A program made the translations under genes and the position numbers. 42,912 bases of DNA, taken from the NCBI GenBank assembly GCA_900128565.1, contig LT635934.1, forward strand, positions 1 through 42,912. Direction: 5' to 3'. Below are positions 1-42,912 of this stretch, one piece after another (the first letter of the stretch is position 1; each line of letters starts with the position of its first letter). Source of the stretch: Stramenopiles sp. TOSAG23-6. Its lineage: Eukaryota. A model generated the notes under the pieces. The model worked only from the letters and a program-made list of their open reading frames with translations. It searched no databases and was not told the DNA's origin.

Positions 1-1334
1 CACCGCGCACAGATCTGATTTTTTTTGAAGATTAAGGATTTTTGGAAAAAATGGTAGGGGGTCTGAAATTTGACAAAAAATCAATTGTATACGGATTTTC
101 GTACCTAAGGCTCCTGAGCGTCCATATTTGTCGATATTTTTAGATAATTCTTTGGTGCAGCTGCAACATTATCTGCAGGGATTTGTTAGTAAAAATGGAA
201 GGGGTCTGAAAGTTCAAACCTTCGAGTATGTCAAGGAGAACTCGGATTTTAAAATAATGCATTTTTGACTTTCGTATGGTTCGACCAAAGTAAAGTATAT
301 TGTTTCGTCTGCATTATATACATTGTTCATTGTATCATTTCAAAAAACCAAACCCCCAGTGACATACTATGCGATTAGAACAGATCAACAGTAAAACTTT
401 GGTCTTGAAAGATGAAATATTTTTTTTTGGAGGTGCACCACAAAATAGTTTCTCAATTTCCCACGAAATGGGGGGTGGAATTGGTCGCCGCAAATGTCGT
501 ACAAAGACTACTTTGAAAAAGTCTGAAATACCTACAGTTGATGTTGCTGATATTGCATATAATAATTACAACGGTCAGCACTTTAAAATCACATATAGCG
601 AACTTGTAGGTCAAGAAAATACACCTGTGAATACCTCAAATACAAAGAAATCACATCAAAAGATCTTTATGTAAACTCCTTAAGGAAGTTACTACCCAAC
701 ATAATGATAATGTAGAAATATGAAAATTGATGGATACTGAAGCGAAATAAAACGCATATATTACTGGAGATGCAACCAGAGTTGAGTTTCCAGCAAGTAT
801 TAAGCTATTATTGCAATGGTACTAGACATGTGGTCTTTGTTCATTTATGAGAGAAACACTTAACCTTGTAAACAACTTATTTTTCAAGAATTGTCTTTAT
901 TTTAGTGCATATGAAATATACTAGACCAATCTAAAATAACAGGAAAACGTACCAATGCAATAATTAAGTTTGATATTAACTTTATCTTTTGATTTTAGTT
1001 GTCTTCTGTTGCATGCCCATGGCACGGCAATTTATCTGTAAAGATGACAAATAAGTACGAAATTTTGTACCAAAAAAAAATATCCCCTTTTCACTCAATA
1101 ACTTTACACCAATTAATAGAGGAAGGTTCTGTGAGTTCAGAAGTGTCTTTACATTGAAAAAATATTAATTCTTTGTCATTCTACAATAAATCTATTTTGA
1201 ACTGTTTTAGAGTATTTTAGAGTAAAACAGCTCAAAAATTTCAGACCCCTTGCCATTTTTGCCTTTTTGGTACGAATTTTTTCGTACTTAATATTTTTCT
1301 TAATCTTCAAAAAAAATGAAATCTGAGCGCGGTG
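1..1334. mobile_element. Putative non-autonomous TIR DNA transposon (MITE/MULE-like relic); left end at or beyond the window edge
   Basis: 1-36 (CACCGCGCACAGATCTGATTTTTTTTGAAGATTAAG) is the reverse complement of 1299-1334 at 33/36 positions. A second inverted block pairs ~46-72 (AAAAATGGTAGGGGGTCTGAAATTT) with ~1236-1260, with a further direct copy at ~191-212. TACGAAnTTTCGTAC-like palindromic motifs occur at ~90, ~1055 and ~1270. No transposase is recognisable inside, and a TSD cannot be assessed. Confidence 0.6.
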
Positions 1335-8805: not shown

Positions 8806-9597
8806 TTATACTGTTGTTGAATTTGAAGATTTACCAAAGACTTTGTAATTTTCCATCTTTGGTGCATACATATTTTTTAATAGTGCAACTTTGAGTGATT
8901 TTTTCGCTGCAATGTCATTATTCACTGGTACTATTTTTGAATGAGCTACGCCTAACGCGTTTATAGTTAGTTCATTTTCAAGAATTTTTTCCTGAAAATT
9001 TTCAATACCAGGGTTATTCAGTAAGTGACTCCGGTATTGAAGTAAAGTACGTAAATAAGTTGCCAAATCAACCATCTCTTGTTCTAAAATGCCTTTGTTT
9101 ACTAGTTCTTCAGGTGTAGTAGGGGGTACCACATGAACTTCCGCGATATCTTGTGTTCCTAGTGTTGTAGTGACATTAAATAAAGTGACTTGACAGAAAG
9201 CACCACTCCACTTCTCTGTGCAATTGCACACTGAATGAAATGTTGTTTTATTTAATATACAGTGACCGTGTCCACTACACTTGTTATAACAGACTGGGGC
9301 CAAATCTAAAGAAAGCACTGTCTTATTTTTCTTTTTATCTTTTTCGCACTTTTTACACGGTGGACCTGCTAGTACTGAAGTATCATTTATATCGCTACTT
9401 TCGGTATTTCCTTCAAAATCTCCCATACCTATTTCGTTTAACGTTGCATTAGCTTCGCGAAACCTAGGCTCTAATACAACGTTCTTCCGATTAATTTTGC
9501 GTCTCGGTGAACGAAACACACTTATTCCTACATCATTCATCACTGCTAGCAGCAATAAAATGGTGGGCACATTGAAGTACATGGTCAAGGGTGACAT
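8806..9597 (-). CDS. Secreted or membrane-anchored protein with one EGF-like domain
   Basis: Hydrophobic N-terminus; tenascin-type EGF repeat CYNKCSGHGHC..CNC...WSGAFC; many NxS/T sequons. Confidence 0.75.
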   Translation of the reverse strand: MSPLTMYFNVPTILLLLAVMNDVGISVFRSPRRKINRKNVVLEPRFREANATLNEIGMGDFEGNTESSDINDTSVLAGPPCKKCEKDKKKNKTVLSLDLAPVCYNKCSGHGHCILNKTTFHSVCNCTEKWSGAFCQVTLFNVTTTLGTQDIAEVHVVPPTTPEELVNKGILEQEMVDLATYLRTLLQYRSHLLNNPGIENFQEKILENELTINALGVAHSKIVPVNNDIAAKKSLKVALLKNMYAPKMENYKVFGKSSNSTTV

Positions 9598-9844
9598 TTG
9601 TACGTTTTTAGTCTCATTACGATTTATTATTGATTACACACACAGGAACGAAAAATTTCAAATTTCAAATTTTTATTTATTTTTTTTCGTGTTTTTTTTG
9701 TGAAGAAGTCGAAAAAAGTCAAGGAAAGTCAAAAAGTCACTCATCAAAACCGTCAAACTCAAATTGATCAAAAAAGGATCAAATGTATCCTTTTGCGAGT
9801 AACACTTACATTACTTACTAGCCAATAAATCAAGCGAGATAAAA

Positions 9845-13040: not shown

Positions 13041-13298
13041 GCGACAGCTATAAGTATATGAACTGACGAAAATAATACATACTACTTGCTTTTACTTCAT
13101 GGACCTCACCTCCTCAAATGTAGTACTACGGTAGTAGTAGCCTAGTAGCTGTTGACAAAAGTAGCAAATTTTTGATTCACGGTTACTTTTTGTTGTTTTT
13201 GACTACCGAAGTAAGTCGTGTCTTTTACGGGTTGTACGTTTATAGTACTAGACTGCTATAGATTGTCTGCACACAGGCCGCAACAACAGGTACAGCGA

Positions 13299-14240
13299 AT
13301 GTCAGCACCACCTCCAGATCCAGCAAGGCTTCCCAAGAATCAAGGCTACAGCTGGGGATCCTCAACGTCTATTTCCACAAAGCACGTTAACGGTAATATT
13401 GTTAAAACAACGATAACGAAATATAAGGTCACACTTACCGATGGTACTCTCTACGACTCGTGGGAGGAGGTAAAAACTGAAGATTGTGGTTCTGTGAAAA
13501 CAAAAGAAATGAGTGTAGTACCTGGAACAAAGGATAAAAAGAAACAAAGCGTAGCACCTCCAGATCCATCAAGACTTCCCAAGAATCAAGGCTACAGCTG
13601 GGGATCCTCAACATCTACTTCCACAAAGCACGTTAACGGTAATATTGTTAAAACAACGATAACGAAATATAAGGTCACACTTACCGATGGTACTCTCTAC
13701 GACTCGTGGGAGGAGGTAAAAACTGAAGATGGGGGTTCTGTGGAAAAAGAAGCTCTTGGTGTATTACCTGGAAAAGATGATCTTCAAAAACAATGCACTC
13801 TTTGCCTCAATAAAGGTTTGCCTTTAAATGAAAAGTTATTAAAATTTGTTTACTCAAAACATTCACAAAAAATCGGAGATGGGCAGTGTTATGCAACAGC
13901 TGCTGTAACTTTGTCTAGTATTGGTGCACGAGAAGCTCGTGGCTTCGATTTTGGAAAGAAGATAAAAGAGACTGAAATTTATCCTGGTGATATTATTCAA
14001 TTCAGCTGGGCTAAATTTAAAGGTAATAGTGTGGGAGGTGGTACGTATCAGAAAAATTGTGGAAATGCCGCTTCAAATGGAGCACATACAGCCATTGTTT
14101 ATTCTTACGATGTCAATACCCGATCTGTATGTACACTAGAACAGAATATGAATAATATATTAAAGGTATGCTTTGGTGGATATGCATTCGAGGACATGTA
14201 TGAAGGTAGTTTTGATGTATTTAGACCAGTTGCGAAATAA
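13299..14240 (+). CDS. Protein with two near-identical N-terminal repeats and a C-terminal CHAP/cysteine-proteinase-like fold (AIM3/BBC1 C-terminal-like)
   Basis: First ATG at 13299; the C-terminal domain carries IGDGQC, PGDIIQF, HTAIV and LEQN, a Cys-His-Glu CHAP-like arrangement. Confidence 0.7.
   Translation: MSAPPPDPARLPKNQGYSWGSSTSISTKHVNGNIVKTTITKYKVTLTDGTLYDSWEEVKTEDCGSVKTKEMSVVPGTKDKKKQSVAPPDPSRLPKNQGYSWGSSTSTSTKHVNGNIVKTTITKYKVTLTDGTLYDSWEEVKTEDGGSVEKEALGVLPGKDDLQKQCTLCLNKGLPLNEKLLKFVYSKHSQKIGDGQCYATAAVTLSSIGAREARGFDFGKKIKETEIYPGDIIQFSWAKFKGNSVGGGTYQKNCGNAASNGAHTAIVYSYDVNTRSVCTLEQNMNNILKVCFGGYAFEDMYEGSFDVFRPVAK
13307..13742 (+). repeat. Internal direct duplication of ~190 bp, period 246 bp
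   Basis: 13329-13484 and 13575-13730 differ at only 2 positions; both encode LPKNQGYSWGSST...WEEVKTED. Confidence 0.95.
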
Positions 14241-15094: not shown

Positions 15095-15221
15095 TCCCCG
15101 CAAAAGAGACCTCGTTGCTACAATAAAGCTCCTTATTTTCTGGGCATCAAGAAAGGAACAGCAGGAAGTTTAATTGGGTGGAGGAAACTGGTCGTGTCTC
15201 TTTCAATAATTGAATTTAGCA

Positions 15222-17634
15222 ATGCTTGACGAGTCCGATGATGATATTCCCCTCAGTATGATGTCGAAGAAAGTCAAGAAAAAGGAAAAACATGCCGACT
15301 CGTCTGATTCTGAAGATGATAAGCCCTTGAGTAAGTTGAGTGTTATTAAGCAAATTGGAAAAAAAGTGAAGAAAGAAAAACTTGTCACGAAGGATCAAAA
15401 TAGTAAGGTCTTTACTAGTCCAAGTGTTATTAAGCAAATTGGAAAGAAAGTGAAGAAGGAGAAAAAGGTGAAAAAAGAGAAAAAGCACAAGAAGGAAAAG
15501 AAGCACAAGAAGGAGAAAAAGCACAAGAAAGATAAAAAGCACAAGAAAGAAAAGAAATCATCCAAAAAACGATTATTATCCTCAATTTCGAAGAATTCTC
15601 CAAAAATAACAAAAAAACGACGAAAGAGTAGCACATCTAAAGGCAAGAGTGGTCCCCAGCGAAGCATGAAAGTGATAAATGAGACAGAAATGCTTGACGG
15701 CGCCATGAAAGCTCACAAGTGGTGGGAAGATCCACCTACTAAAGAGGTGATGGGAGATAATGGTGAAATGTTTTTGCCTCAGTGGTCTTCAATGGAACAT
15801 ATTGGTGTTATATTTCCTGAGGCGCACGATTACTCGTATGATGACAATGGTAATCGTGTCTGTATGAAATATGATGGTCAGGATGTTGATCTTACTCTTG
15901 AGCAAGATGAAGTTGCGTATTTTTACGCTAAATCTTTAACTGCGATGCAACTTCAAAAAGAAGAAACAGCAAAGATATTTAACAAAAACTTTTTTGCTGG
16001 TTTCAAGAAAGTTTTGGGTAGAGGCCACATAATAAAAGATTTCAAAAAGTGTGACTTCACTCCTATCAAAGCTAGGTTGGACGTGTTGCGTGACCGGAAG
16101 AAAGAATCCAGTAAAGCTGTAAAGAATGCCGAAAAGGAGAAACGCGCTGTGGTGCAACGTACGTATGGTTATGCTTTAGTCAACGGTCGTGTCCAACGAG
16201 TCGGAAATACTACTATTGAGCCTCCAGGACTTTTCAGAGGTCGTGGTATTCATCCTAAAATGGGAACTATTAAGAATCGTGTACCACCAGAAGCTATCGC
16301 TATTAATGTATCTCGATGTGCTGCTGTGCCGAAATGTCCCGTCCCAGGACATGCTTGGGGTGCTATCGTACACAAACCTGATGTCACATGGCTGGCTATG
16401 TGGAAAGAGAACATCAATGGCAGTGTTAAATATGTTTACTTAAATAGTGGTTCTGCATTCAAGGGAAAATCAGATAGATCTAAATACGAGAAAGCGCGAA
16501 AGTTGAAAAATTATATCTCGAAAATTCGCAAGGATTATCGAAAAAAACTTACTGCCAAAAATTTAGAAACTGCACAACTTGCGACAGCTATGTATGTTGT
16601 TGTTTTTTTCAATTTCGAATTTATTTTTTTCATACGAAATTTCGTACCTAACAAAAACAAAAGAAAATATTTTTTTACAATACATGTGGGTCATTGATGT
16701 ATTAGCACTTCGTGTTGGTGGAGAAAAGGGCGAAGACGAAGCTGATACTGTTGGATGTTGCTCTTTACGAAAGGAACATTTTACGTTTGAACCAACGGAG
16801 GATACACCATATCCTTCTGATATGTGTTTTACGCTTGATTTTCTTGGTAAAGATTCTATGCGTTATTTTGAAGTAATTGACTTAGGTACCGAACGACACC
16901 AGGTTGACGGTATTGGAGCCAAAGTGTTTGCTAATATTAAGAGATTTTGGAAAAAGGCCAAGAAACCTGGTGATGATATATTTGATAGACTCAATCCGTC
17001 ACTATTGAACGACCATTTAAGAAGTCTCATGCCTGGATTAAGCGCCAAGGTATTTCGTACTTTTAATGCTTCAATCACATTAGAAGAAAAGTTACCGCTT
17101 CGTATACCTTCTGATCTAGCTGGCGCTGAACAGTTGCTTATATATAATGCCGCTAATCGTGATGTGGCTATTTTATGTAATCATCAACGGTCGGTTCCTG
17201 CTAGTTTCGATAGTAGTTTCAAGAAGTTGAAAGATCGTGAAAAGTTGAAAAGCAAACAACTCTCCGAATTAAAGGAACATCTCAAGCGACGTAAAAAAGG
17301 TAAGGACATTAAACTACAGCCTAAGGAAATGCCAACTGATAAAGCAGAAAGAGCAAAAATCTCACATCTATACAAGTCTCAGCCAGATCCATCAAAGTTG
17401 CGCAATCGTATTGCAACATTCGAAAAACAGGTAAAGAATATGCGCGATAACATAAAAAACAAAGATGACAACAAGACAGTTTCTCTCTCTACATCAAAGA
17501 TTAATTATATGGATCCTCGCGTGACTGTTGCATGGTGCAAGCGTAATGAAGTTCCTATAGAGCGTGTATTTCCAAAAGCTTTGCAAGATAAATTTCCTTG
17601 GGCTATGAGTGTCCCTGAGTCATGGAGATTTTAA
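15222..17634 (+). CDS. TOP1: DNA topoisomerase IB; exons 15222-16591 and 16686-17634 (772 aa if spliced)
   Basis: Lys-rich N-terminus; EPPGLFRGRG.HPKMG; KYEKAR; catalytic ALRVG, FLGKD, KVFRT, CNHQ and INYMDP motifs all intact. Removing 94 nt restores QLATAM-WVIDVLALR. Confidence 0.93.
15339..15556 (+). repeat. Lys-rich coding repeats in the TOP1 N-terminus (SVIKQIGKKVKKEK x2; KKEKKH-type 18-bp units)
   Basis: Visible in both DNA and translation. Confidence 0.85.
16592..16685 (+). other. Non-canonical 94-nt intron (GT...AT, equivalently AT...AC at 16590-16683)
   Basis: GTATGT donor, CTAAC branch-like motif 16648-16652, T-tract and end TACAT. ATGT is duplicated at both junctions. Removal is required to restore the TOP1 frame and a conserved motif. 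Confidence 0.75.
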
Positions 17635-21893: not shown

Positions 21894-23270
21894 TTAGTTA
21901 GTATAATAAATAGGCCCATTCTCCTCGGACGCTGGGTTCTCCTTTTTCACGATAACTGGATTATCGGTAGAGGCATGCTCTACAAGCCTTGTACCACAAT
22001 ATTTTCCTGTGTAGTCTTCATTGCAGACACAGTACGAACCACTCGATCTAATCTCACACGTTCCATGACTGTTACAATTTCTGAGGCATATTTCCTCTTC
22101 GCATGTAATTCCCTGATACCCTTGTTCGCAAACGCAACGACCATCACTACAGTACCCATTAACACATCTATCACTACAACCTTTATCTTGACAACTTGCA
22201 CCTTGATATGGTGTTTGACATTTACAAAATCCTTTACTATTACAAGCTCCATGACCATTGCAGTTTTGTGGGCATGTAACTTTCGAGCAATCATTCCCGG
22301 TAAAAAACTCGTCGCATTCACAAATCCCACTTGAATTACAAACTCCATTACCTGAGCAAAGATTTGGACATAACTTTTTACAAGGAAAACCTCCATAACC
22401 ACTTTTACATACACAAAAAGAATCATTTAGACAAATTCCATTTTCACAAGCCCCACATGTACGCTGGGAACAATCCTCGCCAATAAAACCTCGTGTACAA
22501 TCACACTTCTTACTACGACATACGCCGTGTCCACTGCAACTATTTGGACAGACAGTAGCTCCTTCAGTGCAGTCAACGGTGTCTTTATCAGTACCTCCGT
22601 TAACTCTTCTTCCATTGATAAATAGGTTGGCAACAAAATCTGCTGTATGAGATATGTTATTTAACATATCATCGACTATTGTATCCTCGACAGGCTTAGA
22701 TGCAAAGTTATGAATAACAGATAGAGAGTTTGGGCACTTGCAAACACCATTAAAACACTGCTTGCCATTAAAACACCCACCTACACAGATCTTAACCTCA
22801 CAAGCAGTTCCTGTATATCCTTCAATACACATGCACCCATTTTCTGTACATCGGGCATTTTTGCCACAATTTTCTTTACACTGGCTTTCAGAGCATGAAC
22901 TTCCCGAATACATATCATAACAACGACAAAACGAAGTTTTCTCTGACCACGACCACAAACAATCACCGTGACCAGAGCAACTATTGGAACACTTAGTGGC
23001 AGGTATGGGTACGGTTTCCTTGCTACAATCATTACCAGTATAATTAGGATAACAAATGCAGCTACCGCCGGAGCATGCTCCCTTTCCGGAGCAGTTTTTG
23101 GGACATCCTTGGGTTACACGTGTTCGTAAACTCTTTGAAACTTTTCCCAGCTTGCGTTTAGAATTTGTACGTATTGCTAACATTTCCCGTATTTTCTTTC
23201 GAGAGCGGTTGGTCTTACCTTGCGCGAGGATTCCCGTGAATACAAAAAAGAGCAAAATATTTCTAGTCAT
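21894..23270 (-). CDS. Secreted tenascin-type EGF-repeat protein (10 EGF-like repeats)
   Basis: Signal peptide MTRNILLFFVFTGILAQG; repeated CPxxCSGxGxC...CxC..G..G.DC; no TM anchor. Confidence 0.9.
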   Translation of the reverse strand: MTRNILLFFVFTGILAQGKTNRSRKKIREMLAIRTNSKRKLGKVSKSLRTRVTQGCPKNCSGKGACSGGSCICYPNYTGNDCSKETVPIPATKCSNSCSGHGDCLWSWSEKTSFCRCYDMYSGSSCSESQCKENCGKNARCTENGCMCIEGYTGTACEVKICVGGCFNGKQCFNGVCKCPNSLSVIHNFASKPVEDTIVDDMLNNISHTADFVANLFINGRRVNGGTDKDTVDCTEGATVCPNSCSGHGVCRSKKCDCTRGFIGEDCSQRTCGACENGICLNDSFCVCKSGYGGFPCKKLCPNLCSGNGVCNSSGICECDEFFTGNDCSKVTCPQNCNGHGACNSKGFCKCQTPYQGASCQDKGCSDRCVNGYCSDGRCVCEQGYQGITCEEEICLRNCNSHGTCEIRSSGSYCVCNEDYTGKYCGTRLVEHASTDNPVIVKKENPASEENGPIYYTN

Positions 23271-23579
23271 AGTATCTGCCTGTTAATATAGAATGATTTT
23301 CATTGAAATTATAATGAATATGGAAGGAAAAAGGGTATACGGCGGCGGGTACGGGTACCATATTCCAACTGGAACAGGAACGAGTTTTTGAATTTAAAAA
23401 AAAAAGAAAAATCGAAAAATCACCCGATATTTCAAAAATAGCAGATTTGATAATTGATTTCGATTTTTTTTCGATTTGATTTCGTTAACGGTCGAACGAA
23501 GCAAAAAAAAATAAATACGATTTTTCGGATATACTTTTAATAATTTTATGTTATATAAATAAACCACTACTTTTTTTAT

Positions 23580-28048: not shown

Positions 28049-31000
28049 CTATCTAGCCGAAGGTGCAGGAGTCCAAGCTCTTCCAATGTTTCTAGTTCCA
28101 CGACCGAGAAAAAACTTTCCTTTATCCTGTGCTTCTCTTTTTAGTCTTAGTTGCTCCTTAGTTACATCCCTTGCCTTCTTATGACGTAGTAGTGCATGAA
28201 TACCCACATGCTGCTTTCTAGGTACGTATTTAACAGACCCAATACTACGAGTACTTGATATAGACGTAGTTGACCTCCGAGACCTTGAGGTGGGCAATCT
28301 ACTTCTATTACTTCTTTGACTTTTGAGACCTCCATGGTTGACACGTTGAGATAAACCTCTCAGGTCTGATAAGTCCGGAATTGAGTTTACATCTACTTTT
28401 GCTCTAATAGCGCGAACTCCATTTAGCCCTCCTCCAGTAGCTGAAGAACTACTTGAGTCTTTTACTACTGCCGGTGTTGGAGGTCGAGGAGGGGCCCAAG
28501 CTTTTCTCCTTAAGCCCGATTTATCTGTATTTTCATCCTCTGCATTCCAAACTCGCTTTCCTTGTGTTGAATTCCCAAATGTAGCACCGTCGCTACAAAC
28601 ATCTACATTGGCAAGTGCATCTGCAAGTGCATCAGTAGCTTTCTGCTTCTTACGCGACTGAGCTGCGGCATTTACGTTTCTTGCTCCCATCTTCTGAGCA
28701 ATTTTGTACCTCTGGGCACTGTTGGTTGATCGAAGGTGAATATCGAAGTCTTGTCGTTTGCAAGTACGTGCCGCTTTTGGTGATTCTCTGCAGTGTGTAA
28801 TTGCCCATGTGTCGTGATATAGGCCCTGTTCTAATACAGCTTTCGTCCCATCTTTGTATAATTTGTGTACAAATGTTTTGTAGTTAAAGCGGCCTTGCTG
28901 AGCATTATCAAGACGTCGAAAGAGTCGTGCAGTTCCTTTGTCAGATATAAGTAATTGACTGGGATGAGGTGCTGGAATTTNGTTCATTGGTACTTGCCTC
29001 TTCTTCAATTTTCTCGATGTTTTAGACGCTGATGAAGATCGTCTGGCGAAGGAAACCTTGTGTTGGCTAAAATTACTTCGATCGTACAAATCCTGCAAAC
29101 CTCGACGTAAGTCTCCTAAAGTCAGTGTATCATCCCCTTGACCTGATCTAGCTGCAAACGAAAGTGATCCTAGAAGTTTCCTAAGAGGTACTGTCTCCTC
29201 AAGAAATTTTAATATACGAACTTCCTCTGGTGCCAATGGAGCTGCTCTTGCCGCGCGAGTGTCAATTAATTTCACATTACTGAAAAGCTGCTTTACAAAA
29301 TATGTGTAGTTAATATACCCAGCATTTTCGGTGTCTGCTTGTAGAAAGGCAGACCGTGCGAGTGATGCATTATTACACTCACCACCAAGTCGAGTGATCA
29401 CTGTGCAAAACTGCCTCGCACTGACAACTGCGGAAGCTGAAGCCATTCGACGAAATAGTAAACACAGATTATCAGCTGTAATTAGTTGACCCTTTACAAG
29501 AATTTCCCGAAGTACTTCCATTGCGGAAAGACGAGATCGACGAAGGCGTATTTCTTCCTGAATTTGCCTTTCTTTCGCCTCCTTTGCAAGCTTTGCTTCA
29601 AGTTTTCTTCCATCCTCTTCCCAGTTACCTTTATTCAATCTCTCAAGATCATTGACTCTTTGGATCCATGCTTTGGTACCTACAGGGTTGTAGAGAACAT
29701 CACAAAATTCATCGAAAGTAATTTCACCAGACATATCTACGTCTATTGATGCGAATAGTTGCTCAGATAAAATGGTTGGCATTTTAAGTCCCAAGACTTG
29801 CATCAGCTTGTTCCATCCATTTTGTGTATACGAAGATGGCATTCCAAGCTTCCTACAAAGTCTCAGTAATCCTCCTGCATTATCGTCATTACATTTATTG
29901 GCAACTCTGTCTTTCAGTAGTTTCATTGCCCCCTTGAGATTTTGTGGGTTTGCCTTCAAGACACGTAAATGAGTATAATGTGCACGTTTTTCGCGCTTTT
30001 GATGAGCTTGAGCTAACATCCAATCTGAGTGAGGTTCAAACCTACCTCCTCCTTTGAGAGTTGCATCAGGGACTAATTTCAAGAATTCTTCCACTTCAAT
30101 GAAACCACATCCATTCTTTTCAAGTTGATTGAATATCCTTTCTGTAAGATCGTCGCAACTTATACCACATCCACGCAATGCTTTGTGAAACTGATTAAAA
30201 TCTAATTTCGTATGTTGGATTCCACCAAAGTCAGTGCAAGCACGGCGAAATCGGCGTCGCGTATCGGATGTGCTTTTTGATACTTGAGAAAACAATTTTA
30301 GGAGATATTTGACTGGATCTTCTTCATCAAGTGCTTTTGATTTAGCTGATTGTTTTAGGTCTCTTCGAATTGCTCTCTTTTCTTTCTCTGTCAATGCAGC
30401 CCAAGCTGTACGCCTTTTTAGAGAAGGATCTGGATTTATCTCCTCAGAGAACTGGAGACCTGCCGTTTGTGAATAACCCTCATCTTCTCCAAAAACTACC
30501 CATAAAAACTCCTGAAATTCGATTAATCCAGATCCATCAGCATCGATCTGTTCAAATACCTGGCGTTTCAATGATTCGCTACAAATTACACCAAAAGTAT
30601 TAAGGACAAATTTGAAGCCTTTGAAATCTAAACTTGTATTACCTGTGTCATAAGAAGGTGGTACTAATGTACGTAACATATACATAAGACCTCTCGAAGG
30701 ATGACTACCTAGCTTATCACTGGCTTTACAGCGAAGAGTATGAAGCACATTCTTTACAGTATGGATGTGAGATAATTTTAGATTTTGAGCCTTTATTTTC
30801 GTCTTAGCTTCCTCTTCCGTCGAAGAATTAACAGTCGCTTCTCCAAGGACATTTTCAGTTTCCATCAAACCTTGTACAAATTCACCAAAATCAATGTTGC
30901 CGCTTCCATCTTCATCTAATTCATCAAATCCATTTTGAATCAATCTTTCATTTTCAGGATTTTCTGTATCGATAATATTCCACATTTGACATAACCTCCT

Positions 31001-32608
31001 GAATTCAGCTACATTGATATCTGATGTCTTTGAACCCGCACTATATCGAAATTGTTTAAATGCTCGAGCAAGTTCTCCGGGGCCTCCAGATTTCCATTGT
31101 CTTACTTTGGAACGAAGCATCTTCACAACATTAACATTCTGTTCTGACTTTGTTTGTGCTTTATTAGTTCTTTGCTTTCTCCGTTCAACAGCACTAAATT
31201 GTTGTTGCTTCAACCACTTTGAACTTATTTGTAGTGCACCGTGTTTACTTTCATTCTTTTCAACTGCAACCCAGTCAGTCATACCACCAGTGACAATTGC
31301 TGTTGCAAAAGCAGATGGTTCCACTCCTCCTCTATTGTCTTTATCGAGAGACTCATATAAAGTACGACATGCATTATTTGTTGCCAAAACACCAATTTTC
31401 TTCAGTATCAATTTAAATCTAGAATAGCTGATTAGTTCATCTTCATCGATACCACAGATTTTGAACGCACGATAACATCCACGTCGACCTTTCACTCCGC
31501 GCGACTCAATCTTTTGTAAAAGTATCTCGAGTATAAGATTCGTGTCTTCCAGTAATACTCTTCTTTCATTGAATTCTTCGATTTGAGTTTCCTGTTCCTT
31601 AACTCTGCGACGCATAAACGATAAAATTGATTGACACTTTTGAGGGGATGTAACACATGAAGCTACAAATTCAGAGAAATTAATTATTCCGGTTTTATCG
31701 GGATCCATGGAGTCAAACAACGATGCTGTTTTTCGGTGATTACATAATTCCCAGTTTGCAACCCCACGACTAAATTCACTTTTAGTTATAAGAAGTTTAT
31801 TTGTACTGCTGCATTTACATCGGAAATGTGCAAATGCATCGCACAGACCATTACTTGATCCTTCGAGTCCCTTTAATTTAGTCATAATTGTACCAAACAA
31901 GTCATTTCCCGCAGAACGTTCGGCGGCAACCTTTTCCAGCCTCTTCTGGCGACGTATTTCATCCAATTTTTCTTGTTCCTCTTGTGCTTTTATCTTTTGC
32001 TTCATTATAAATTCGGTAGATGGTCGGCTGTTTCTGGAGTCTTTACCCTCAATTATACCTTCTAGCTCTTCATCCTGTAATTTATTGTACTGCTCCAAGG
32101 TCAATGATACTCCCTGCAAAGCTACAGCATCTGGTCCTAATAATCGTTCAAGGAAATCTTTGTATTTTATACTACCCAATTTCTCTGTATCCATGATATC
32201 AAATAACGACCTTATTGTTGATATAGAAGATACTCCACAATAACGAAGGGATGTGCGTAAACCTCTTTGGTTCACTCGGTCCTTAGAACGAGACTGCTTC
32301 ACTGCCTGAGATTTGAGAGCTCTTCGTAGTCCTGCAACTCCCATATTTGAACGTTCTACTTTTTTCCTTACCGATGCCCAAATTTCATCTTGAAAATTAC
32401 TAGTTGTTGTTTTTGAATCGATAAAGTCGTTGGCTTTAACTTCATCCAACGTGGATCGAGAAGCAGTGTTTTCAGTTGTGCGATTCCTACTTACACGCTG
32501 AGCTGCAGCAGTTCTACCACGCGATTGACTCCCACCAAGACTTGAACGTAACACATGTCTATTCTGCGCTGGTGGACGTTTTGATTTCATCATGGAGCGA
32601 ATGTTCAT
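28049..32608 (-). CDS. Large multi-EF-hand calcium-binding protein (EFCAB6-like architecture)
   Basis: About 9 EF-loop motifs (e.g. DPDKTGIINFSEF, DEDGSGNIDFGEF, DADGSGLIEFQEF, DVDMSGEITFDEF); one N at 28981. Confidence 0.88.
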   Translation of the reverse strand: MNIRSMMKSKRPPAQNRHVLRSSLGGSQSRGRTAAAQRVSRNRTTENTASRSTLDEVKANDFIDSKTTTSNFQDEIWASVRKKVERSNMGVAGLRRALKSQAVKQSRSKDRVNQRGLRTSLRYCGVSSISTIRSLFDIMDTEKLGSIKYKDFLERLLGPDAVALQGVSLTLEQYNKLQDEELEGIIEGKDSRNSRPSTEFIMKQKIKAQEEQEKLDEIRRQKRLEKVAAERSAGNDLFGTIMTKLKGLEGSSNGLCDAFAHFRCKCSSTNKLLITKSEFSRGVANWELCNHRKTASLFDSMDPDKTGIINFSEFVASCVTSPQKCQSILSFMRRRVKEQETQIEEFNERRVLLEDTNLILEILLQKIESRGVKGRRGCYRAFKICGIDEDELISYSRFKLILKKIGVLATNNACRTLYESLDKDNRGGVEPSAFATAIVTGGMTDWVAVEKNESKHGALQISSKWLKQQQFSAVERRKQRTNKAQTKSEQNVNVVKMLRSKVRQWKSGGPGELARAFKQFRYSAGSKTSDINVAEFRRLCQMWNIIDTENPENERLIQNGFDELDEDGSGNIDFGEFVQGLMETENVLGEATVNSSTEEEAKTKIKAQNLKLSHIHTVKNVLHTLRCKASDKLGSHPSRGLMYMLRTLVPPSYDTGNTSLDFKGFKFVLNTFGVICSESLKRQVFEQIDADGSGLIEFQEFLWVVFGEDEGYSQTAGLQFSEEINPDPSLKRRTAWAALTEKEKRAIRRDLKQSAKSKALDEEDPVKYLLKLFSQVSKSTSDTRRRFRRACTDFGGIQHTKLDFNQFHKALRGCGISCDDLTERIFNQLEKNGCGFIEVEEFLKLVPDATLKGGGRFEPHSDWMLAQAHQKREKRAHYTHLRVLKANPQNLKGAMKLLKDRVANKCNDDNAGGLLRLCRKLGMPSSYTQNGWNKLMQVLGLKMPTILSEQLFASIDVDMSGEITFDEFCDVLYNPVGTKAWIQRVNDLERLNKGNWEEDGRKLEAKLAKEAKERQIQEEIRLRRSRLSAMEVLREILVKGQLITADNLCLLFRRMASASAVVSARQFCTVITRLGGECNNASLARSAFLQADTENAGYINYTYFVKQLFSNVKLIDTRAARAAPLAPEEVRILKFLEETVPLRKLLGSLSFAARSGQGDDTLTLGDLRRGLQDLYDRSNFSQHKVSFARRSSSASKTSRKLKKRQVPMNXIPAPHPSQLLISDKGTARLFRRLDNAQQGRFNYKTFVHKLYKDGTKAVLEQGLYHDTWAITHCRESPKAARTCKRQDFDIHLRSTNSAQRYKIAQKMGARNVNAAAQSRKKQKATDALADALANVDVCSDGATFGNSTQGKRVWNAEDENTDKSGLRRKAWAPPRPPTPAVVKDSSSSSATGGGLNGVRAIRAKVDVNSIPDLSDLRGLSQRVNHGGLKSQRSNRSRLPTSRSRRSTTSISSTRSIGSVKYVPRKQHVGIHALLRHKKARDVTKEQLRLKREAQDKGKFFLGRGTRNIGRAWTPAPSAR

Positions 32609-32932
32609 TGTCGCACACTTTAATCACTTTTTTTGGAAACTTATCTAATCCCAAGGATTAGGATTAAGTTTTGAAGGGTAAATTGTAGAAGTAAGATACG
32701 CCCAACGGAACGTTTTTTTTCTTTTTTTGGTCGGTTACTTTTTTCTCGATCTTTTCGTTTTGCGTAAACATCAATATCTTATATACTGCTACTACCCCAC
32801 ATTACTTTACGATATATGTACACTAGATCTACCTACACAAGATTAAATTTACTCGCTTTCATCCATCGTTGTAATTCATCCATGAAGATGAATATTTTAA
32901 GGATAATCAATTGAATACCAGCGAAATAGGAA

Positions 32933-41979: not shown

Positions 41980-42912
41980 TTAAAGTGGTTGTCTGTGTAG
42001 AACTTGATCGATTTGTTGAGTGAAATCAGCAGTATTGGTCTCAACTTTTAGTTTCTTTCCTTCACTTATGGAAGTACTTTTTGTACTTGTAGGTTTATTA
42101 TCATTTTCCTTACGCTTTCCCTGATACTTTATCTTTCCAAAATTTGTGTTCTTAAATTGAAGCCAATTATCATCAGCAGTAATAATTGCTTCTTCTATAG
42201 TTGAATCATTTTTTATCGTACTGTCATCATCAATACTATAAGACATATTATCATCAAAACCATTTGTAAGTGAAGTATTTAATGCATGAGAACTTGATCT
42301 TTTATGAAAACGGATACGATCCCTTGAATTTGTGGTAAAACCGTCGGTGATATTTGTATATATATCCCTGGTATGATCGATTCTTTGTGTGTGATTTCTT
42401 TGTATAGATGATTTTGTCCTAGAATGTTCCGTCAAAGAAAATGGTTTTCGAAGTTCTCCTAAAAGTTCGAGCATATCAGTGTATACATCACCTGTTGAAT
42501 GTGATACCTTGTCCATTTCAGTTCCTATTATCTGTAAATTGTTTTCCATCAATGTGTTGTATTTCTTCAATGATTGAAAATCCGTTTTTTGATTTTGCTC
42601 ATGAAAAATATCTTTCGTTTTTACTATATTTTTTTCCATTAATGTGTAATACTTTTTTGAAGATTTGAAATCCTTGTCTTGATTTTGCTCATGAAAAGTA
42701 TCTTTAGCTTGTAGCATGTTTTTCGCAATTTCAATTTCATCATGGGTGAAAATTTTGACATTTGAGGGAATTTGCATCTCTGTCTTTCGTTGTATTATCT
42801 TCATATCAACTGAATCTTGTTGCGTAAAATTATCATCTGTTTTAACTTGCTGTGATCTACCTGAATTTTCTAATTCGTGAAGTGTTTTAAGCTGTTCTAG
42901 TGATAGTTGTTG
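41980..42912 (-). CDS. 5'-truncated gene; shares an in-frame segment with the 1202-aa coiled-coil protein
   Basis: Frame is open to the window end (QQLSLEQLKTLHELENSGRSQQ...DMKIIQ); internal 90-bp-period repeat at ~42541-42705. Confidence 0.7.
   Translation of the reverse strand, partial: QQLSLEQLKTLHELENSGRSQQVKTDDNFTQQDSVDMKIIQRKTEMQIPSNVKIFTHDEIEIAKNMLQAKDTFHEQNQDKDFKSSKKYYTLMEKNIVKTKDIFHEQNQKTDFQSLKKYNTLMENNLQIIGTEMDKVSHSTGDVYTDMLELLGELRKPFSLTEHSRTKSSIQRNHTQRIDHTRDIYTNITDGFTTNSRDRIRFHKRSSSHALNTSLTNGFDDNMSYSIDDDSTIKNDSTIEEAIITADDNWLQFKNTNFGKIKYQGKRKENDNKPTSTKSTSISEGKKLKVETNTADFTQQIDQVLHRQPL
42858..42912 (-). repeat. Exact 55-bp inverted copy of 33599-33653
   Basis: The reverse complement reads CAACAACTATCACTAGAACAGCTTAAAACACTTCACGAATTAGAAAATTCAGGTA, identical to 33599-33653. 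Confidence 0.97.

Follow-up and report, generated by a model that had tools for sequence, protein, structure and literature searches.

In contig LT635934.1 of Stramenopiles sp. TOSAG23-6 (assembly GCA_900128565.1), the gene encoding DNA topoisomerase I (TOP1) contains a 94-base interruption with an A+T content of 80%. The contig was analyzed from position 1 to position 42,912, a stretch referred to here as the window, and TOP1 occupies 15222-17634 on its + strand. Our preferred reading, which we hold tentatively, is that the insert is an ordinary, lineage-specific U2-type intron in a functional TOP1 gene, and that the T at its last position (16685) arose as a defect of the template or the assembly or represents a private allele. 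A first-pass annotation of the window had proposed non-canonical splicing instead. The insert itself appears to be a new, lineage-specific intron; the exotic part of the proposal hinges on one nucleotide, 16685, and is unproven.

An interrupted topoisomerase gene

The two TOP1 exons lie in separate open reading frames (ORFs), 15210-16697 and 16567-17634, whose frames differ by +1. Exon 1 (15222-16591, + strand), delimited from its ORF and Pfam matches, begins with the ATG at 15222 and, in the GT-AT register, ends with the AT of a Met codon. Exon 2 (16686-17634, + strand, stop codon included) was delimited from its ORF, Pfam matches and an alignment with human TOP1. The exon 1 ORF contains Topoisom_I_N (PF02919; E = 1.6e-73) followed by positions 2-48 of Topoisom_I (PF01028), and the exon 2 ORF contains positions 49-227 of PF01028 (E = 2.3e-63) and the C-terminal Topo_C_assoc domain (E = 3.5e-32). 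A gap of exactly 94 bases separates position 48 of the PF01028 profile from position 49, and no part of the profile is lost there. Exon 2 was also aligned to the structures of human TOP1 (E = 6e-63), and it keeps the motifs CCSLR, GKDSMRY (GKDSxRY), KVFRTFNAS (KVFRTxNAS), LCNHQR and SKINYMDPR (SKxNYxDPR), which we take to be the carriers of the catalytic residues. With all three domains and the conserved motifs present, the host gene is, as judged from its sequence, a eukaryotic type IB DNA topoisomerase. The N-terminal part of the gene (15400-15560) encodes a run of KKEKKH and KKDKKH repeats, low-complexity coding DNA that drew foreign contigs in read placement.

The end of exon 1 reads ...GCT ATG (ATG at 16590-16592), and the W of the motif WVIDVLALR is the TGG at 16687-16689. 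Exact removal of the 94 nucleotides (nt) yields ...QLATAM/WVIDVLALR... (slashes mark junctions throughout), the reading of all relatives. The closest proteins in a large collection, P0001 and P0002, showed 78 and 71% identity, respectively, and the matches to named proteins were from oomycetes, diatoms and one labyrinthulomycete, at ~47-50% identity, which places the host among the stramenopiles. All seven homologs that were fetched proved to be uninterrupted at the site, as in P0002 (...ETAQIATAMWVVDILALR...). No TOP1 transcript or ORF of the same species was found in the protein collection, in which the best match reached 78% identity (57% at full coverage in one further search and 59% in another), and none of three ORF products of the window was present there. 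These data uphold several statements of the first-pass annotation, namely that the QLATAM/WVIDVLALR motif is broken by 94 AT-rich nt with a shift of frame, that the catalytic region downstream is intact and that the insert must leave the messenger RNA (mRNA) precisely, as indicated by the continuity of the Pfam profile and by the uninterrupted homologs.

A search of related metagenome TOP1 loci, the best of which showed 59% identity, revealed no locus of the same species. Among 80 related loci, 76 were contiguous at the site, three lacked a recognizable motif and one (L035) had a stop codon six codons upstream. Thus, no interruption at the insert site was seen in any of the 77 related loci with the junction motif, 13 loci being checked by eye, and on this basis we consider the insert to be lineage-specific. 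The locus with 59% identity (L002) contains two short GT-AG introns with GTACGT donors, at 1690-1760 and 1832-1895 of its own sequence. One of them lies 11 codons upstream of the TOP1 intron site of the window, and a direct repeat, AAGTACG, borders the first.

With a GC content of 0.32-0.42, the window is AT-rich, and long, single ORFs fill it densely. Among its roughly two dozen genes, the only further intron found was in RPL10A (1540-2550), a 316-nt intron at 2019-2334 with GT-AG termini (GTAAGT...TTACAG); ten other ORFs gave Pfam matches that were undivided or gave none. Two RNA libraries, X6 (depth 6.6) and X7 (depth 27.3), yielded contigs with the spliced RPL10A joint, which indicates that they contain real mRNA of the same organism or one very close to it, spliced in canonical fashion. 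The relaxed 3′ splice-site rule put forward at first pass for this lineage is conjectural, the RPL10A intron being GT-AG.

Splicing signals and the last base of the insert

In the GT...AT register, the insert occupies 16592-16685 on the + strand, a placement whose removal fits both the Pfam profile and the homologs. Because ATGT is present both at 16590-16593 and at 16684-16687, the 94-nt deletion can be written in five registers, including AT...AC at 16590-16683, all of which yield one identical product. At its 5′ end the insert reads GTATGT (16592-16597), a splice-site consensus of the GTRNGT-like form that occurs 28 times on the two strands of the window (3.3e-4 per position). A CTAAC branch-site-like motif is present at 16648-16652, with a putative branch point at A16651, at distances of 34, 12 and 54 nt from 16685, G16663 and G16705, respectively. 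In 50,000 shuffles of the insert, a CTAAC at a distance of 15-50 nt to the 3′ end arose with a frequency of 2.9% (p = 0.029). Just upstream of the 3′ end is a tract of seven T residues (16670-16676; poly-U in RNA), and the insert then closes with CAT (16683-16685) where a CAG acceptor would be expected, T16685 being the critical base. Its end, U7-ACAAUA-CAU, is therefore one base off canonical (CAT/G as against CAG/G), with AT at 16684-16685 in place of the AG that terminates a U2-type GT-AG intron. With only T16685 replaced by G, the sequence would read GTATGT...TACAG/G, or in full GTATGT...CTAAC...U7...ACAATACAG/G. Given the rarity of GTATGT, the placement of CTAAC and the U tract, these signals are poorly explained by chance, and the insert looks like a U2-type intron in its anatomy.

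Canonical splice-site pairs were enumerated with donors at 16450-16659 and acceptors at 16620-16799, allowing GT-AG, GC-AG and AT-AC termini and keeping those that were in frame and free of stop codons. The resulting 110 open-frame pairs comprised 30 GT-AG or GC-AG pairs and 80 AT-AC pairs. Only one of the 110, the AT-AC pair 16590-16683 (equivalent to GT-AT at 16592-16685), restored QLATAMWVIDVLALR, while each of the 30 GT-AG or GC-AG pairs lost conserved residues or gained insert-encoded ones. Between 16592 and 16720, AG dinucleotides end only at 16663 and 16705, and both shift the frame. The former belongs to AAG (16661-16663, + strand), the sole AG within the insert, which lies near the branch motif and is out of frame with every nearby GT. 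The latter belongs to a TAG in exon 2 (16703-16705, + strand), the nearest downstream YAG, which could compete as an acceptor and whose use would shift the frame. Read-through of the insert by frameshifting, which would bring ~31 residues into a conserved helix, was considered and dismissed by inference. The sequence-level description in the first-pass annotation was accurate on these points: GTATGT, CTAAC and a T-tract are in place, the GT...AT and AT...AC registers are equivalent, and no AG is usable.

The insert most resembles the canonical U2-type GT-AG introns of intron-poor eukaryotes (yeast-like GUAUGU/UACUAAC/YAG). It shares with them GTATGT, the U tract and an intron-poor host, and it is likewise short, with CTAAC 34 nt from its 3′ end; it differs in its last base, a T where these introns have G. 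U12-type introns have the donor [AG]TATCCTT and the branch sequence TCCTTAAC, located about 10-20 nt from the 3′ end, and they tolerate non-AG ends. On sequence grounds, the insert is not of this type. Its donors read GTATGTTG and ATGTATGT, so that the U12 donor is absent, as had been noted at first pass; its CCTAAC resembles part of the U12 branch motif, but TACCTAAC fits only six of eight positions and its A lies 34 nt from the end. U2-type AT-AC introns have an ATAAGT-like donor consensus. The register 16590-16683, one of the five, does have the AT...AC termini of the U2-type "type II" class (PMC7072748; PMC1557818), but its donor, ATGTAT, would pair poorly with U1 and U6, whereas a perfect GTATGT lies 2 nt downstream.

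Two further comparisons were made with systems described in published accounts. The HAU sites used by Saccharomyces cerevisiae lacking Prp18p (PMC10711555) share with the insert a CAU end, a strong poly(U) and G as first base. According to that account, they are low-level or mutant-dependent alternatives, whereas in this wild organism the productive splicing of a presumably essential gene would depend on CAU alone. The introner elements of Amoebophrya and the nonconventional introns of euglenids (PMC7789003; PMC3935182) resemble the insert in having a boundary direct repeat, complementary ends and non-canonical termini. In contrast to them, the insert has an inverted repeat of 6 bp rather than an 8-20-nt inverted-repeat hairpin, does not form a hairpin beyond the level of shuffled sequences, carries full conventional signals and showed no repeated family in the window.

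Independent sequences and rival explanations

The TOP1 region was compared at contig level with an independent seawater metagenome (X3; DNA) and three RNA libraries (X6, X7 and X8). The independent metagenomes X3-X5 contain 0.67-0.88 of the sequence words, and the organism is also represented in the poly(A) metatranscriptomes X6, X8 and X10-X20. Record 7 of X3 is a 766-nt contig that extends over 16633-17398 with two mismatches and no gaps (~99.7% identity). It covers 16685, and the positions of its two mismatches are not among the differences listed. The 3′ part of the insert and exon 2, found together in this contig, are thus joined in natural DNA and do not represent an amplification chimera. 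RNA-library contigs cover parts of both TOP1 exons. Since an intact, conserved gene is represented in RNA libraries and the insert is present in two independent DNA samples, the insert must be removed, and the spliceosome is the obvious route given the signals described above. Likewise, exons that are intact, conserved and represented in RNA libraries argue that TOP1 is live rather than decayed.

If the insert is an ordinary intron, GUAUGU at 16592 would be the site recognized by U1 and U6, CUAAC would provide the branch point (A16651), and the U7 tract would lead to an acceptor at 16685/16686. T16685 would then be a base error of amplification or assembly, or else a private or heterozygous splice-site variant of the sequenced cell, and no new intron class or splicing rule would be involved. 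We favor this reading because the sole other intron of the window, in RPL10A, is GT-AG and is spliced in RNA contigs, and because, by known rules, a CAU end would compete poorly with the UAG at 16703-16705, both AG options causing a frameshift. The window consensus is not flawless, as it contains a single N at 28981, inside a 1524-codon ORF (28052-32623, - strand). Most apparent "other" non-canonical splice sites were reportedly found by Burset et al. in 2000 to be sequence or annotation errors. Several observations weigh against an error or private allele at 16685. The base has been read in the window only and in no independent data, and across the site the X3 contig has just the two mismatches in 766 nt. 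Of the 27 differences listed for X3 relative to the window, 11 are synonymous, 7 are non-synonymous and 9 lie in non-coding DNA, so that they look like natural polymorphism and not like errors; the only one of them in TOP1, 15989 C>T, is synonymous. Over 18.7 kb, X3 differs from the window by T>G at exactly one place (not among the differences listed) and by A>C at three, counts that, taken with the two mismatches of record 7, weakly favor X3 also having T at 16685, by ~2-fold in our own estimate. Finally, among non-G ends, yeast spliceosomes tolerate T best (CAU, UAU), and poly(U) favors such sites (PMC10711555); both features are present here.

A serious, if doubtful, possibility is that T16685 is real and that the insert is a genuine U2-type GU-AU intron, the exons being ligated at CAU/G with the aid of the adjacent U7 tract. 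The frame-shifting AAG at 16663 and UAG at 16705 would then have to be avoided, or their products cleared by nonsense-mediated decay. Every other splicing signal is strong and properly placed, the junction of insert and exon 2 recurs in the X3 contig at ~99.7% identity, the X3 mismatch counts lean slightly the same way, and TOP1 is intact, conserved and represented in RNA libraries. There is also a parallel in S. cerevisiae lacking Prp18p, which uses non-YAG sites, CAU and UAU being the most efficient of those without G, and in which an upstream poly(U), together with an interaction possibly made with the first base of the intron, enhances HAU use (PMC10711555); additionally, the 3′ site is described as more flexible than the 5′ site across kingdoms (PMC7072748). 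However, the use of such sites in wild-type yeast is given as low-level in the former account, and minor non-canonical combinations are rare in the latter, at 0.09% combined in plants. A consensus UAG lies only 20 nt downstream, the other intron found in the window is canonical, and no joint or bridging contig at 16591/16686 occurred among the X6, X7 and X8 contigs listed, a result that by itself weighs neither way. If T is real, GU-AU is to be preferred over AT-AC, because the AUGUAU donor is weak and GUAUGU lies 2 nt on. A real and widespread T might alternatively mean that splicing fails and that TOP1 is a very young pseudogene or a dispensable copy, possibly backed by a paralog. All AG choices do cause a frameshift under standard rules; nevertheless, we regard this as improbable, given that neither ORF (457 and 315 codons) is damaged and every conserved motif is kept, that the sole TOP1 difference among those listed is silent, and that RNA-library contigs lie over both exons.

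Explanations that dispense with the ordinary signals fared less well. A transposon- or insertion-derived intron of the Amoebophrya or euglenid kind, removed without an AG, would have ATGT as its insertion footprint and would bring the exons together through its ATGTAT (16590-16595) and ATACAT (16680-16685) ends, which are reverse complements. It would account for the 4-nt direct repeat over both boundaries, the 6-bp inverted repeat and the lineage-specific occurrence of the insert, and introner elements of Amoebophrya have 3-5-nt direct and 8-20-nt inverted repeats (PMC7789003). However, once the ends are fixed as AT/GTATGT...CAT/GT, the ATGT repeat appears in 100% of 20,000 shuffles, and with those ends kept the 6-bp inverted repeat, itself shorter than the 8-20-nt range, appears in 6.0% of 50,000 shuffles (p about 0.06). 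Being automatic or near chance given the end sequences, the direct and inverted repeats carry no weight of their own. The predicted fold of the insert with its flanks (118 nt) had an energy of -15.7 kcal/mol as against -16.18 +/- 2.76 for shuffles (z = 0.17), and the insert alone (96 nt) gave z = 0.28. Consequently, of the two structural claims made at first pass, the perfect 6-bp terminal inverted repeats do exist but are at chance level as a signal, and the structure-assisted intron class finds no footing. There was, moreover, no second copy of the insert within the 42.9-kb window, and no terminal inverted repeats were apparent by eye under the TA, ATG or ATGT target-duplication readings. 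An insertion-derived intron is for these reasons very improbable. Even harder to credit is that the insert is kept in the RNA, either with ribosomes bypassing it from the ATG at 16590 to the ATG at 16684 or with two polypeptides being made, the second from the ATG at 16684. Identical ATG codons flank the gap, exon 2 is opened by an ATG, and a palindrome that is also found upstream of RPL10A lies 38 nt before the ATG at 16684. Yet the take-off codon is followed by neither a stop codon nor a hairpin, the split point is inside the PF01028 domain, and the intron signals would have to be coincidence; we know of no precedent for ribosome bypass in nuclear genes.

Other features of the window and significance of the insert

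The palindrome just mentioned, TACGAAATTTCGTA, lies at 16633-16646 within the insert. Its general form, TAC(G)AA-[A/T]n-TT(C/T)GTA, occurs three times in the window (1056-1072, 1271-1288 and 16633-16646), two copies being upstream of RPL10A and one in the TOP1 insert. In 200 shuffles the mean number of matches was 0.08 and the maximum was 2. The palindrome is a candidate that may represent a regulatory or protein-binding site. Contig depth summed on 16603-16661 was high, reaching 4087 in X3 and 771 in X8. Five X3 contigs on this segment share one flank, the other strand of which, as judged by eye, resembles a gene beginning with M K K I N S K F.... A repeat family at 16603-16661 was considered and dropped, as the shared flank resembles a gene start of an abundant AT-rich organism, and the accumulation of depth is probably due to chance or low-complexity similarity. 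An Rfam scan of the window returned no family at gathering score; five weak matches below threshold (E = 0.26-4.4) included none resembling a small nucleolar RNA. Viral contigs searched with two core patterns gave no matches.

Elsewhere in the window, the ORF at 13215-14237 encodes two near-identical tandem units of ~90 residues (...PPDPxRLPKNQGYSWGSSTS...KYKVTLTDGTLYDSWEEVKTED...) and, after them, an AIM3/BBC1 cysteine-proteinase-fold domain (E = 7.9e-16). Two ORFs, 21897-23282 and 8809-9633 (- strand), encode teneurin-type EGF-repeat proteins in this protist genome, with a match to PF25024 (E = 6.4e-51) for 21897-23282.

What the insert means depends on the state of base 16685. If T is a template defect, then single-base errors or private variants in single-cell and metagenome assemblies can mimic exotic introns, and the sequences of the splice sites can by themselves give rise to direct and inverted repeats at the ends of introns. 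That a free-living marine stramenopile makes natural and productive use of a CAU acceptor to splice a U2-type intron in the presumably essential TOP1 gene seems to us unlikely. Should T be real and the junction used, this would be a natural, wild-type case of AG-independent exon ligation by the major spliceosome. To our knowledge, choice of a 3′ site independently of AG is so far known only from yeast mutants. The second-step machinery (Prp18, Slu7, Prp8 and Prp22) would then pick the 3′ site by its distance from the branch and by the U tract rather than by AG. Such a case would be a warning to gene finders against splitting genes of this kind, and an intron-poor protist would allow the rule to be worked out on few introns.

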